Of a DNA stretch of 55,957 nt, positions 1-49,995 are shown in pieces. Position numbers and translations under genes: made by a program. This DNA is from Chlamydiota bacterium (GTDB lineage: Bacteria > Chlamydiota > Chlamydiia > Chlamydiales > SM23-39), in NCBI GenBank assembly GCA_027451585.1, contig DAIDIZ010000024.1:1-55957 (forward strand), in the 5' to 3' direction. The notes beneath the pieces were generated by a model. It did no database searches. It was not told the DNA's origin and saw only the letters and a list, made by a program, of their open reading frames with translations. Position 1 is the first letter of the stretch. Each line of letters opens with the position of its first letter.

Positions 1-131
1 ACGAGGAGTGGGTGACTGGAAAGCAATATTTAGACATGAGTCCTCTATTAAATCCGGGCTCAGAAAATAATTAAACGTGAGAGGTGAAAAGAGGGAGAAG
101 ATCGAATTTACAGAAAAACTGTTGCTTTGCC
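1..131 (+). mobile_element. 3' end of an IS256-family element (transposase C-terminus 3..74 plus right terminal repeat)
   Basis: Frame 3 reads EEWVTGKQYLDMSPLLNPGSENN*, resembling IS256 transposase C-termini. It is followed by GAATTTACAGAAAAACTGTTGCTTTGCC, which resembles an IS256 right end. IS630 coding sequence starts immediately after. Confidence 0.65.
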
Positions 132-470
132 TAATTCTCGACAACGCGAAATATCAGGCTTGCCATGTGACGAGGTCTGCAGCGAGCATGCAGGATATCA
201 AATTGCTTTATCTGCCCCCATATTCTCCCAATCTGAATCTGATAGAGAGAGTTTGGAAATTTATTAGGAAGAAGAGTCTTAATTGCAAATATTACGAAAC
301 TTTTGACGAGTTCAAGCTGGCGATATCAGGCTGCATTGAGAAATTCAGCGGAGAGTACAGGAAAGAACTTGAGAGTCTGTTGACGTGGACGTTCCAAACA
401 TTCCCAACGAAGGAGTCTGTGGAGAAAGCAGCGTGAGAATAATTTTAAAAACCTAACCGCGCGCAGTATA
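132..470 (+). mobile_element. IS630-family element, 3' part (interrupted DDE transposase to 436; right end ...CCGCGCGCAGTA-TA)
   Basis: ILDNAKYQ and LYLPPYSPNLNLIERVWK are IS630 DDE motifs. The end at AGTATA fits a TA target site. Confidence 0.85.
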
Positions 471-9908: not shown

Positions 9909-9986
9909 TTTTGTTTACCTTTTTATATATTGTAATTCTTTTGTTGTTTTTTGTGTTATTATAAATAAATATTGAGAATGGTTGTT

Positions 9987-10004
9987 CCGGAAATGATTCA
10001 AAAG
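9987..10004. repeat. Remnant terminal repeat of palindromic element family B
   Basis: CCGGAAATGATTCAAAAG is identical to 24715..24732. Confidence 0.6.
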
Positions 10005-10025
10005 ACGCCCGTCAGATGAAGGCTC

Positions 10026-10090
10026 TATACTTGTTCCACTCCAAAGATCCGATTTAAAGCTATTAAAAAAATTGGGGTGGAACGAGTATA
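10026..10090. repeat. Palindromic MITE-like element family A
   Basis: TATACTTGTTCCACTCCAA ... TTGGGGTGGAACGAGTATA inverted repeats; overlaps the prmA 3' end. Confidence 0.8.
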
Positions 10091-24710: not shown

Positions 24711-24879
24711 TATACCGGAAATGATTCAAAAGTCGGCTTTTTGGCCGGCGTGAAAGCTGCCGATAAATCGCTTGACTAAGGTGGAGGTTGTATTTCCTCG
24801 GTACTACCCTCACCCTGTTCAAGCATTTATTCAGTTTTGACTCTGCCAAAAAAACAACTTTTGAGTCATTTCCGGTATA
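24711..24879. repeat. Palindromic MITE-like element family B (169 bp)
   Basis: TATACCGGAAATGATTCAAAAGT / ACTTTTGAGTCATTTCCGGTATA terminal repeats with further nested complementarity. Confidence 0.85.
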
Positions 24880-42112: not shown

Positions 42113-42196
42113 TATACTCGTTCCACTCCAAAATGGCCCAAGAAAATCGAATTTAAATTGGTTTACTTGGGGCGCCTTTGGACTGGAACGAGTCTA
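42113..42196. repeat. Palindromic MITE-like element family A
   Basis: TATACTCGTTCCACTCCAAA / TTTGGACTGGAACGAGTCTA inverted repeats in a divergent intergenic region. Confidence 0.8.
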
Positions 42197-46198: not shown

Positions 46199-47734
46199 TT
46201 ATCGACATTGCTGATTTGTGAGCAATCTCCTCATTTGCGTCCCTGCTGCCGTGATCATCACTCGGGCCAGATGGTTGGGGATGTAGTGATAGGGGATTGT
46301 CTCGATATAGACGATTCGAGTTGTTTTTGGATCAGCCCCTCGAGAAATGGCTTGCTTGATCGCCTCGGCCATGAGTTCGTCCATTGTTTTTTCCCTATTT
46401 TCTAAGGAGACAACCACATCGATTGTGGCGGAGATCTCAGAGAGGGCGGCTCCAAAGGCGTTGGCAACGGTTCCATTTTCGGGGAACTGATAGCGAGAGG
46501 AGGGGAGAAGAGAACGGAAGAGGATTGCGCCCCCTCCGACGACAATCACGGGAAGGTGTTGTTCTTTCCCCCCAATTTTTTCGACGAGTCTCTCTATTTT
46601 GTTTATCCCCATTGCAAGGATGGCGTGGCTTTGGGGGCAGTCGACTGGGAGGGTTCCTGGGATGATTTCGGGATTGAGTGCTACTGCGAGATCGGTCAGG
46701 GTGAGCAAATGACCTCCAAAGCAGAGCGCTTCTTGGGTGATATTTTTTGCAGCGCTTTTAGGTCCGATCTGTTGAGGATCAAGTGAGACATAGCTACCTC
46801 CTCCGATCGCAACGGATAGGACATCGGGCATCGGAAAATTGAGGGAAACGCCTCCTATTTGAGTGCACTCGACAGATCTTCGGGGAAACCCTTTTCGGAC
46901 AATGCCGACGTCAGTAGATGTGCCGCCAATGTCGACGATGATCGCGTCATGTAAATCCGAGAGTTGGGCGCCCCCGATGAAAGAGTTGGTAGGTCCGGCA
47001 GAGAGTGTGAGGATCGGGTATTCAAGCGCTTGTTCTAGAGGAAGGATGGTTCCGTTGTTTTGGGTGAGAAAAAGGGGGGCTTGAATCGAGAGCACATCGA
47101 GCTGTTTTCTGAGTTGTTGGAATCCGTTTGACAGAGGTTTTTTTAAAGCGGCATTCAGAATTGTGCTATTTTCTCTCTCGATGATGCCAATTCCGCCGAT
47201 TTGATGGGAAAGGGAAAAGGGGAGGTTGGGGTAAAGAGAACAAATGGCTAGCTCTTGCTCAGGATAGAGGGGGGCAAAGACACCTACCACGGCGAGACTT
47301 TCAGCTCCTTGGGAAACGAGGGTTTCGATTGCTTGTTTCGCCTCGCTCAAAGAAAAGGGGGTGATGGAGGATCCGTCACAATCAAATCCGCCTCCAATGG
47401 TGATACAGGAAAGGGAGAGAGCGCATTTGAGCTCGTCTGGCCATCGAAAAGCGGGAGGAATGGTTTGGGGATGATGTCCTGCAATGCGAATCAGGCCAAC
47501 CCGGTAGAGATCTTTCCTCTCGAGAAGCGCGTTGATGGCATGAGTGGTACCTACAAAGACTGCTTCAACGTGTGTGGGATCAACTCCTTCGATCAGGGTT
47601 TTGAGCGCCTGGGCAAATCCTTTGTCGATCGGATTGGTTGTGATTTGTTTCACTTTTTTAACTATGTTTTTTTGGGAATTGAGCAATACCATGTCGGTAT
47701 TGGTCCCTCCGATATCTACTCCCACTGTGAACAT
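46199..47734 (-). CDS. Hydantoinase A / oxoprolinase family protein
   Basis: GVDIGGTNTD, GTTHAINA, ERENSTILNA, SAGPTNS, DIGGTSTDVG and VANAFGAA. Confidence 0.92.
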   Translation of the reverse strand: MFTVGVDIGGTNTDMVLLNSQKNIVKKVKQITTNPIDKGFAQALKTLIEGVDPTHVEAVFVGTTHAINALLERKDLYRVGLIRIAGHHPQTIPPAFRWPDELKCALSLSCITIGGGFDCDGSSITPFSLSEAKQAIETLVSQGAESLAVVGVFAPLYPEQELAICSLYPNLPFSLSHQIGGIGIIERENSTILNAALKKPLSNGFQQLRKQLDVLSIQAPLFLTQNNGTILPLEQALEYPILTLSAGPTNSFIGGAQLSDLHDAIIVDIGGTSTDVGIVRKGFPRRSVECTQIGGVSLNFPMPDVLSVAIGGGSYVSLDPQQIGPKSAAKNITQEALCFGGHLLTLTDLAVALNPEIIPGTLPVDCPQSHAILAMGINKIERLVEKIGGKEQHLPVIVVGGGAILFRSLLPSSRYQFPENGTVANAFGAALSEISATIDVVVSLENREKTMDELMAEAIKQAISRGADPKTTRIVYIETIPYHYIPNHLARVMITAAGTQMRRLLTNQQCR

Positions 47735-49995
47735 AAAACCTCTTCTCCTACTAATTGCATTCCTTTTGGACTTTTCCAGATCTCAGGAGGGGAAAGGGAA
47801 AAGAGATCGACTCTAAGGCCGTAACGGAGCGATTCGCTCGTGATGGGGCGCCTGGACTCTTGTTCGAGAAGGACGAGGATTTCTGGGGTGACGCCCCATT
47901 TTTGTGAGCCTCGCTTTGCCAGGAGATATTCGTTCCGATAAAAAAGAGTGGTCCCTGAATCGAGAACGACTTTCCCATCTAAAAACCCATTATGGATTTC
48001 TTGTTCAATCTCCACGATCATTCCTGAATCGAGCACTTCTTCTTGAGGTCCGAACCAGTGTTTTCCAAGAGCAATGGCCCGAGAAAGGCTTCCTCGGATG
48101 ATCACTTCTTTGGCCCTTTTCGCATCCATGAGGTAGCATCCGATGGCCGCACTAGAACCAAAACGAACAGTGAGCTCTCTTGCTTCTTTTTCCATAGAGG
48201 AGGCATCCCCAGTGGAAATTTCAGTGACTTTTCCCAAAGGGCCGCCGAGAAAGGCCGGTGTGGGAGAGACGTTCAAGAGATGGCATACACTCATCGGGAT
48301 CTCGGGAAACGCTCTCCCAATTGTATCCCCATCCAGAATTGGAAGAGAGAGTCTTCCTGCCACGTAAAGGGGCGCCAACGCGTTGGCGCCGCCGATTTCA
48401 GCCGGCATAAGGACAAGAGATTGGTTGGAAAATTTCCGTTTGATCGCCTCGAGAATCGAAAGGAATTCTTTGCCACTTGCAATTCTTTCAAGCCCGATCA
48501 AAGGGGCTCCGATAAGAGCCAGAGGAACAACGAGATGGTTTTCATTGAGTTCATGGATGTCGAGAAGGGGAACAGGACCCCATGTTTCGATTTGGTGCTC
48601 CGCAATCAGAAGGTCGTAAGTGGGATCTCCCCCTCCTCCGGAACCGAGAATAGCAGCTCCTCTGGCCAGAGGGGCGAGATCATCGAGTTTTATACTCCGC
48701 GCCGCTTGAAATTGGGATTTAAACGGGTTCAAAGCGCCCAAAATCGCCGATCGAAAAGGGGGGCTGTATTTGCCAATACTGCCCCTCTTTTCAATCATCG
48801 ATTTTTGACAGCTTTCGATCCCGTTTAAATTCCCAATTTCAAGAGGCGCGGAGTATATAACAGTTGCATAAGGAATTCTCATGAATTGCATAACCAATGC
48901 GCCTAAAAAAGCATCGAGTAAAGGGAATGACAAATAGCCGAGAAGGCTCACAAAACCGGAGCCAATACCCACGCCACACGAGAGTGTATTCCAGACAAAT
49001 GAAGTCTCTTTTTGAAAAGAACTGGAGACGAGGACGGCTCCTAAACTGGCGATCATCAACCCCATGATTTCGAGGGCTAACGCAAAATGGGCAAGGATGT
49101 TTAGCGAGGCGAAAAATGTTCCGACAAGACCGATTAAGATCGTTCTTTGCCCAGAAGACAATCGAGGGAATAGGGCGAAAGAATTGACTCCTGCCGAGTA
49201 GAGGTTGGTGTTATTGGTCATCCATGTAGCGAGAAAAAGAAAAAGGGTCACCCACAAGGTCCAAAGAGGTCCTCCTCCTTGCGTGAGTAGGTCAAGAAAA
49301 GAGCCGTTGATCAGGTGACTGCCCAAATAGACGCCTACACACTCAATGAGAGGGATGGCAAGGCCAAAAAGAAGAATAACAGCCCCAATTCCTTCTCGTT
49401 TTGTCCGGGCATCTTTCCAGTAGGTGGGTAGATCGAGAGCTCCACCGATTCCCGTTGCGATCACAAGAGAAAGACCAGCTAGGGAGGCTGGCGCCCCAAA
49501 GAAGGTTGTGCGAGAGTGGGCCGTTGTGAGGGCCATCACCAATGTAGCGATAAGTAACGGGGTTATCCATTGAGAGAAGTAACTCAAGAGTTGAATCCCC
49601 CGCGCGGCAGTCATCGTCATCACGACTCCCAGTAAGAGGGTGGTCCCGATTTTGGTGAGAAAAGGAAATACAAAAACGACCGTTTCCGTGATGACGTTCA
49701 ATTGAATTGCGAACCAGCCGATCATCGAGATGAGAAAGATCAGGCTGAAAAGAACCGTTCCATAGCGACCGAATCGGTTGACCGCAAGTTCGATGGTCGA
49801 AAGTTGCGACTTCATCCCCATTTGCGCTGAAGCTATGGCATAGAACAGGAGAATCCCATTTCCACACCAGATCATTCCCAAAGCCGGAATAAGACCGTAC
49901 GTTTGGGAAAGAGTTTGTCCAATCAAGATCACGGGAAGGCAGATTGCCCCCCCGATCTGAATAGAAAGAAGTTGCCAGAGAGAGAGTTTTTTCAT
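47716..49995 (-). CDS. Fusion of a cytosine/NCS1-type permease and a DUF917 protein, with a palindromic-element linker
   Basis: About 12 TM helices with GWFAIQ and WMTNNTNLYSAG; then GAAILGSGGGGDP, EIGGAN, DGDTIGRAFPE, F/YRNEYL and PEIL. Confidence 0.88.
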   Translation of the reverse strand: MKKLSLWQLLSIQIGGAICLPVILIGQTLSQTYGLIPALGMIWCGNGILLFYAIASAQMGMKSQLSTIELAVNRFGRYGTVLFSLIFLISMIGWFAIQLNVITETVVFVFPFLTKIGTTLLLGVVMTMTAARGIQLLSYFSQWITPLLIATLVMALTTAHSRTTFFGAPASLAGLSLVIATGIGGALDLPTYWKDARTKREGIGAVILLFGLAIPLIECVGVYLGSHLINGSFLDLLTQGGGPLWTLWVTLFLFLATWMTNNTNLYSAGVNSFALFPRLSSGQRTILIGLVGTFFASLNILAHFALALEIMGLMIASLGAVLVSSSFQKETSFVWNTLSCGVGIGSGFVSLLGYLSFPLLDAFLGALVMQFMRIPYATVIYSAPLEIGNLNGIESCQKSMIEKRGSIGKYSPPFRSAILGALNPFKSQFQAARSIKLDDLAPLARGAAILGSGGGGDPTYDLLIAEHQIETWGPVPLLDIHELNENHLVVPLALIGAPLIGLERIASGKEFLSILEAIKRKFSNQSLVLMPAEIGGANALAPLYVAGRLSLPILDGDTIGRAFPEIPMSVCHLLNVSPTPAFLGGPLGKVTEISTGDASSMEKEARELTVRFGSSAAIGCYLMDAKRAKEVIIRGSLSRAIALGKHWFGPQEEVLDSGMIVEIEQEIHNGFLDGKVVLDSGTTLFYRNEYLLAKRGSQKWGVTPEILVLLEQESRRPITSESLRYGLRVDLFSLSPPEIWKSPKGMQLVGEEVLCSQWE
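48691..48857. repeat. Palindromic MITE/RPE-like element family C (167 bp), inside a CDS
   Basis: TATACTCCGCGCCGCTTGAAATTGGGATTTAAACGGG / CCCGTTTAAATTCCCAATTTCAAGAGGCGCGGAGTATA; the interior is also self-complementary. Confidence 0.9.

Follow-up and report, generated by a model that had tools for sequence, protein, structure and literature searches.

Small palindromic elements that behave like the one reported here have been described in several bacteria. RUP of pneumococcus is a MITE (miniature inverted-repeat transposable element) of 107 bp that is thought to be mobilised by the insertion sequence (IS) IS630-Spn1, and in the account given in PMC2229807 it is intergenic and carries stops in all six frames. 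Rickettsia palindromic elements (RPEs), repeats of ~150 bp, occur in frame in unrelated protein genes and are tolerated there as an extra peptide, as outlined in PMC10969869 and PMC2229807. For the Correia elements of Neisseria, PMC10969869 mentions transcript hairpins that are cut by RNase III, and at enhC of Coxiella burnetii an indel neighbouring QMITE2 is described as deciding whether the open reading frame (ORF) reads into the element, with gain of element-encoded residues (PMC5896051). In-frame MITE fusions are called 'not unusual' in passages of the 2024 MITE review (PMC10969869). Here we analysed a 55,957-nt contig of a Chlamydiota bacterium (DAIDIZ010000024.1, assembly GCA_027451585.1; this whole stretch is called the window below), in which a 167-nt palindromic element, TATAC...GTATA, lies within a 759-aa ORF that joins an NCS1-type permease to a DUF917 region. 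We consider it probable that this MITE sits in the overlap of two genes that were separate until recently, and that their frames were joined by a canonical insertion of 165 nt together with one additional TA. The features of the junction are as follows.

47716..49995, minus strand: fused permease-DUF917 ORF, 759 aa, with an NCS1-type permease, a 56-aa element-encoded linker and a DUF917 (S-Me-THD-like) part.
48859..49995, minus strand: permease part, residues 1-379; the homology to standalone permeases stops at the element.
48691..48857, no strand: palindromic MITE, TATAC...GTATA, 167 nt, recognised from sequence, fold and family.
48693-48855, no strand: element proper by the family rule, TAC...GTA, 163 nt, with the duplicated TA at 48691-48692 and 48856-48857.
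48858..48859, no strand: extra TA on the permease side of the element, from sequence and frame arithmetic.
48691..48857, minus strand: linker, residues 380-435 of the 759-aa ORF, encoded by the palindromic element.
47716..48690, minus strand: DUF917 part, from KLDDLAPLARGAAILGSGGGG to the stop, retaining 38/38 invariant columns of the DUF917 alignment A1.

Pfam places Transp_cyt_pur at residues 5-325 of the 759-aa product, S-Me-THD_N at 438-591 and S-Me-THD_C at 599-751, a single ORF covering the NCS1-type permease and both S-Me-THD domains. Standalone permeases (n=10, alignment A2) have their C-terminus 12-25 residues past the invariant Asp361, and standalone DUF917 proteins (n=11, alignment A1) have their N-terminus 5-9 residues ahead of the conserved DL. 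The element lies at the exact domain boundary because these permease ends and DUF917 starts fall there. A mixed alignment (A3) placed the permeases poorly, with 9-15% identity to the query. An earlier reading of this DNA, made from the sequence alone (the sequence-only reading), had described a stop-free 167-nt TATAC...GTATA hairpin at the domain boundary that forms the linker; the sequence, the folds, Pfam and the ends in A1 and A2 all agree with this description, and the element supplies the whole linker, residues 380-435. The arms (48687-48723 and 48825-48861, 37 nt) are 89% complementary in a repeat search. As single-stranded DNA, the element folds at -67 kcal/mol compared to -20.8 +/- 3.4 for 200 shuffles (z -13.55), none of which folds as well; for the mRNA-sense RNA the value is -110.4 kcal/mol (z -17.27). 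Of the six frames, a single one runs through the element without a stop, and this is the frame in use. The element has the make-up of a MITE in that it is short, of non-coding type and bounded by terminal inverted repeats, with no transposase inside. Rfam returned nothing near any gathering score for the element (best E-value 0.12, 21 bits where the gathering score is 60), and a search of longer proteins with the linker peptide matched the query alone among 9 candidates. The predicted product is a membrane permease with DUF917 on its cytoplasmic C-terminus, and we infer, by analogy, that the fused protein is made and working; translation that begins within the linker, at its Met (MIEKRG), is a possible alternative to the full-length product. 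Cleavage of the mRNA hairpin by RNase III, as in Correia elements, is a further possibility, and an RNase III gene was found in the window's own genome.

The origin of the fusion turns on 2 nt. Removal of 167 nt leaves a 387-aa open stretch ending in ...PYATVKTR* and a separate frame that starts from MQLLKLDDLAPLARG (MQLLKLDDL...), and removal of 165 nt leaves one 709-aa open frame (...PYATVIKLDDL). As assembled, the ATG at 48869 opens only MQLLYTPRLLKLGI*, a 14-codon dead end. These frame statements had all been made in the sequence-only reading and were reproduced here. The two frames differ by the TA at 48858-48859 that abuts the element, the minus-strand junction being ...CTGT-TA-TA-TAC.... 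Because a TA is duplicated upon insertion (see the sister copies below), a canonical insertion should add 165 nt, which is frame-neutral and leaves the relative frame of the flanks unchanged; and because only the 167-nt removal restores two genes, the fusion would correspond to a canonical insertion plus the extra TA at 48858-48859. By this arithmetic a normal insertion alone cannot have joined the two reading frames. The earlier proposal is thus supported as to the linker, and the element may have helped to create the fusion, though not by canonical insertion alone, since 165 nt are frame-neutral. The further suggestion, that a net gain of 165 nt would mean an ancestor already fused, does not agree with the flanks if a long-standing fusion is meant, since they keep a DUF917 start and a permease stop that only the 167-nt removal restores.

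Among 40 relatives, the gene cluster was present in G024 and G028 only. In these two genomes it consists of three genes, one for a permease (415 and 400 aa, respectively), one for a DUF917 protein (353 and 343 aa) and a third that is hydantoinase A-like, and the permease and DUF917 genes overlap by 20 nt in G024 and by 4 nt in G028. An exhaustive phmmer search gave 2843 matches; among the 149 other proteins listed, P0002 alone spans both halves, P0034 (887 aa) matches the DUF917 half only, via its N-terminus, and the remaining listed homologues match a single half. A search of shorter proteins returned standalone DUF917 proteins in 23 of 23 cases (332-361 aa, at most 52% identical), none of which covers the linker. 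P0009 ('Parachlamydiales bacterium') is identical to the DUF917 protein of G024, and the source of P0153 is 'Rhabdochlamydiaceae bacterium'. That orthologues would lack the linker and be separate, overlapping genes is borne out by the gene layout in G024 and G028 and by these homologue searches. The alignment of orthologous loci that had been proposed as a check therefore succeeded in part: it gave the separate genes without the linker in G024 and G028, but no empty-site allele. A search with the fused protein for related loci in genome contigs and metagenome contigs found no close orthologue or empty-site allele, the exact 26-nt flank pattern had no match in metagenome contigs, and a word-index search returned the query alone.

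Removal of the 167 nt brings back the two gene ends that the window appears to have kept as relics:

48867..48869, minus strand: relic ATG of DUF917; the 167-nt removal gives MQLLKLDDL, with the N-terminal length of MKQIQIEDL in G024.
48680..48682, minus strand: relic TGA of the permease; the 167-nt removal gives ...ATVKTR*, 18 residues past the DAFL motif, as in G028.

The restored permease tail has basic C-terminal residues, like other homologues, and the restored overlap of 23 nt has the same frame offset as the 20-nt overlap of G024. Because both relics agree with the gene ends of the orthologues, we argue that the permease and DUF917 were separate, overlapping genes until recently.

The element belongs to a larger set of repeats. 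Its family was searched for among 41 genomes, including the window's own, G000, which is a metagenome-assembled genome (MAG) of 82 contigs, 85% complete and 1.37 Mb; for G005, G013 and G004, the best 20 of 58-67 candidates were scored. Matches were found in 10 of the 41 genomes, with at least 28 in G005, at least 24 in G013 and at least 19 in G004. In an alignment of the window copy with twelve others, taken from G005 and G013, all start with TATAC, end with GTATA, measure 165-170 nt and have a common core. In this alignment the core is kept between genomes, the 12-15 nt behind TATAC are genome-specific and both arms covary. A plain DNA search of G000 found one full copy of the window type plus short arm matches, and an nhmmer profile built from the 13-copy alignment found ~22 loci, 10 of them near full length and one of them at 24711-24879 of the window. 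In an arm census of the same genome (up to 5 mismatches in 26 nt), 81 terminal arms belong to the main family, 141 to a third family, 5 to the window type and 5 to the IS; the five window-type arms are the element's own two, one solo arm each on C18 and C77, and a weak arm on C60. In total, >200 terminal arms lie in the 1.37 Mb of this genome. As expected of a multi-copy MITE, copies of the wider family differ in presence and absence between relatives. In this genome and three relatives, related copies have unrelated surroundings, in agreement with the earlier claim of a mobile palindromic repeat with further genomic copies.

The insertion rule was read at sister copies in other genes. One of these is in a photolyase gene:

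G000:C14:33126-33208 (L052): photolyase short-form MITE, arms only, 83 nt, interrupting the conserved NRDYTPY motif with 27 extra residues.

This copy reads GAC-TA-[element]-TA-CACTCCC, and 9 of 9 loci examined from relatives have the empty site GAC TA(T/C) ACT CCC (VNRDYTPY). It is the cleanest filled-versus-empty comparison that we have, and Pfam DNA_photolyase is broken into two stretches around it. A second insert, in MurG, is absent at 11 of 11 loci examined; without its 56 codons the spacing is that of the relatives, GKG-3 residues-Y-7 residues-KEFE, Pfam Glyco_tran_28_C is broken into two stretches and the left TA is mutated to CA. Tandem copies have ...GGTATATACC... in common. The family thus inserts at TA and duplicates the TA, so that each insertion adds 2 nt less than the length from TATAC to GTATA. 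Insertion without duplication, which would make 167 nt a normal event, was ruled out for the family by the photolyase and MurG empty sites. The window copy has TA on both flanks, and the duplication itself was read at the photolyase and MurG copies, which are of a different subfamily. Two other comparisons of empty sites, G005 (L044) with C35 of G000 and G002 (L031) with C77 of G000, have flanks ~70% identical and too diverged for reading the duplication.

Lengths and reading frames of other copies fit the same rule. Among 13 paired elements in G000, five have at least 50 open codons on each side, and 4 of these 5 have a length of 3n+2, which is the length that in-frame survival demands given the TA duplication. 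Sister copies are in frame in MurG, the photolyase, a MORN protein and other ORFs of G000. In the loci of relatives, 1 of 23 copies looks intragenic and most copies are intergenic. The intragenic-looking copy (L040:888-1054, G013:C99) has 167 nt and is in frame within a ~350-aa membrane-protein-like ORF. A TA lies directly next to the element at 3 of 8 IS and window-type ends (the window copy's own included) and at 24 of 142 non-nested arms, compared to 3.8%, the frequency of TA in the genome (p 1e-9).

A candidate for the driver of these elements was found at the other end of the window:

71..470, plus strand: IS630-family IS truncated at the contig end, 3' part only, with a DDE_3 transposase fragment at 71-433 and the terminal repeat ...GCGCGCAGTATA at 470.

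DDE_3 matches in G000 are at C24:122-313 (60 bits) and on C61. The right ends of the IS (window ...470 and C80) share an identical sequence as far as ...GCGCGCAGTATA and differ from there on, and its three left ends are at contig ends. The IS tip TATACTGCGCGCGG, present on five ends, agrees with the MITE tip TATACTCCGCGCCG in 15/18 of the first bases, and when the IS sequence TATACTGCGCGCGGCTAG is set against TATACTCCGCGCCGCTTG of the window MITE, 15/18 bases are identical. The main family has TATAC alone in common with the IS tip. The element's terminal repeats are thus like those of a resident IS630-family element, as expected of a MITE and its mobiliser, and TA duplication together with IS630-like tips gives the same argument that has been made from RUP to IS630-Spn1. 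By these sequence features, the element is probably a non-autonomous MITE of the IS630/Tc1-mariner type, with the resident IS630-type element as its likely driver. An autonomous element between distant arm pairs was also considered (C2:9414-10859 and C37:2644-4023); the ORFs there, of 369 and 408 aa, have no obvious transposase features by reading, with no family search made. The five IS ends are all at or near contig ends, and the IS therefore probably breaks the assembly.

In the history that we propose, a 163-nt palindromic MITE would have landed at a TA in the short permease/DUF917 overlap and duplicated this TA, thereby adding 165 nt and leaving the relative frames unchanged. A further TA (48858-48859), between the permease flank and the element, would raise the net gain to 167 nt (3n+2) and join the frames, and the element's single open frame would then be read as a 56-aa linker. 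That the window copy inserted canonically is something we infer from its sister copies. Some observations weigh against this history. No empty-site allele or close relative was found for the junction locus in genome or metagenome contigs, and the TA duplication was seen at sister copies from another subfamily, not at the window copy. The window subfamily has only 1 full copy and 2-3 solo arms in G000; all IS copies are cut by contig ends, with no complete transposase seen. The fifth intragenic-looking pair (C44:48515-48562, 48 nt) breaks the 3n+2 pattern, its ORF being putative. Finally, expression of the fused protein is a prediction from the sequence.

As to the order of insertion and TA gain, two histories have equal weight in our assessment, each of them credible at somewhat less than an even chance. 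The element may have come first, or together with the TA, so that the TA gain fused the frames and the element was instrumental in the fusion. The pre-insertion site, within the 23 nt shared by two overlapping genes, would then be the TA in ...GTTAAAAC..., and the intermediate would carry 55 residues after Leu4 of DUF917, with the permease ending inside the element (...TVILRAS*). Such a DUF917 with an N-terminal insert would resemble MurG and the photolyase, which tolerate in-frame copies. The TA could have come from slippage, at a later time, within the TATA that closes the element or from an aberrant insertion that brought along a flanking TA; in favour of such an origin, the extra TA directly abuts the element, the TA-TA run is a substrate for slippage, and there is the Coxiella precedent in the account of PMC5896051, where an indel beside QMITE2 decides the reading of enhC into the element. 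For this course, however, a further rare event must have struck the same place, and an adjacent TA is common at such ends without a slip, as the 3/8 IS and window-type ends and the 24/142 arms indicate. The other possible order, to which we give the same credence, starts with a small frameshift, either a TA gain (TTAAAA to TTATAAAA) or the loss of one base, which would have produced a near-linkerless fusion; a canonical, in-frame insertion of 55 codons at the TATA target of ...GTTATAAAAC... would have followed in ORFs already fused, and the element would be a linker only. TA duplication is the family's rule (photolyase, MurG) and under this order the rule accounts for each junction base. The adjacent-TA enrichment at arm ends suggests a preference for TATA targets, and 2 of 3 known empty sites are TATA-like (GTA-TA-C in MurG, and GTTATAAC in G000, where the corresponding site of G005 holds an element). 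It would, on the other hand, require two independent events within 4 bp and the prior fixation of a near-linkerless fusion, which must be rare, as 1 of 149 other listed homologues is fused and its linker has ~50 aa.

Two explanations do without a recent fusion by the MITE. The TA count at the junction might be an assembly or consensus error, the true state being two genes, with an N-terminal insert in DUF917 and no fusion. The genome is an 82-contig MAG, 85% complete, for which a search of sequencing runs listed none, the site is a short TA run next to a strong palindrome where the count depends on the assembly, and an error-free version would resemble the other in-frame copies. We nevertheless regard this as unlikely, since the sequence has no sign of error and both domains and the neighbouring genes are intact. 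Errors in short-read assembly, moreover, do not typically take the form of two-base indels within three-unit repeats. Less probable still is a long-standing fusion whose linker is palindromic by chance, or a structured regulatory RNA in place of a mobile element. The natural fusion P0002 does exist elsewhere, but its linker is unrelated and non-palindromic, four genomes hold related copies of the window element in surroundings that have nothing in common, the flanks retain the relic start and stop, and Rfam gave no match near a gathering score. In our view the many copies of the family, together with the empty sites, refute these last options.

Returning to the MITE in the gene overlap as the preferred reading, comparison with known systems helps to place it. 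P0002, of an uncultured Coxiellaceae MAG (L051:1635-3944), is a permease-DUF917 fusion of 769 aa with the same domain order and a hydantoinase A-like gene next to it, but it is 33% identical and its ~50-aa linker is unrelated in sequence and non-palindromic (the 201-nt fold is -21.7 kcal/mol, compared to -17.9 +/- 3.6 for 180-nt windows of the same ORF). Because of this unrelated, non-palindromic linker and the 33% identity, the P0002 fusion is independent, and it shows that DUF917 tethered to the cytoplasmic tail of a permease is a viable architecture. Like RUP, as far as the description in PMC2229807 goes, the window element is small, palindromic and non-autonomous, has termini like those of a resident IS630-family IS and belongs to a family that inserts at TA; unlike RUP, it has 167 nt and one open frame, is read through within an ORF and belongs to another phylum. 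Correia elements duplicate TA and have ends that start with TATAG. The window element resembles them as a TA-flanked palindromic MITE and differs in sequence and host, Correia elements being mostly intergenic and regulatory. The likeness to RPEs, which had been drawn from the sequence alone, is apt, since the window element and its sister copies (MurG, photolyase, MORN protein, other ORFs) are read in frame as peptide. It is a likeness of behaviour: RPEs are Rickettsia-specific and the host here is chlamydial, so that the element is not a member. In addition, the insertions described in the parts of PMC10969869 and PMC2229807 that deal with RPEs are within single genes, whereas the window element is a fusion linker across a gene junction. 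A similar difference separates it from QMITE2 at enhC, which in that account gives a C-terminal extension ending just past the element, whereas the reading in the window runs into the next gene. By analogy, then, the element appears to be read like an RPE and to move like RUP or Correia elements, with TA duplication and IS630-type tips.

In-frame insertions are already known, and a MITE as the entire linker of two formerly separate genes would be an unusual outcome of them. The word 'chlamydia' is absent from the 2024 MITE review (PMC10969869), no description of such elements in Chlamydiae turned up among the papers that our literature search listed, and a search on MITE-made fusions of adjacent genes gave general reviews only. 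We tentatively suggest, as a possibility we hold at rather less than even odds, that a burst of TA-targeting palindromic MITEs in this chlamydial lineage generates protein architecture in a manner convergent with RPEs, with in-frame copies even in essential genes such as murG, and that one copy plus a TA slip welded a transporter to the enzyme of its cargo through a 56-residue linker. If true, reduced intracellular genomes would draw gene fusions and linkers directly from MITEs. As a general rule, a TA-duplicating element would be frame-neutral only at a fitting length, and 2 nt at its end can decide between two genes and one. For the annotation of MAGs, fused or oddly extended ORFs near palindromic repeats call for read-level checks.

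Other features of the window and its genome concern the neighbouring gene and the remaining palindromic repeats:

46199..47734, minus strand: hydantoinase A-like gene, the third gene of the cluster; G024, G028 and the Coxiellaceae locus have their genes in this order too.
24711-24879, no strand: second MITE, of the main family, 169 nt, outside long ORFs, its right end followed by TATA.

The hydantoinase A-like gene and the fused ORF overlap by 19 nt. The third palindromic family, with 141 arms in G000, has the tip TATACTCGTTCCACTCC and starts with TATAC. About half of its arms are preceded by ...GTA, i.e., they abut another element with the TA common to both, and because they share the TA of their neighbours they would form nested or tandem arrays. 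In the window, a solo main-family arm adjoins a third-family arm at 9983-10051, and two third-family arms make an 84-nt mini-element at 42113-42196. On another contig of the same genome (G000:C73:36677-39190, L053:178-2691), MurG and a MurC-type ligase form one ORF of 837 aa, these being separate neighbours in the 6 relatives examined; the junction is without a MITE, and this same MurG holds the 56-codon in-frame MITE.

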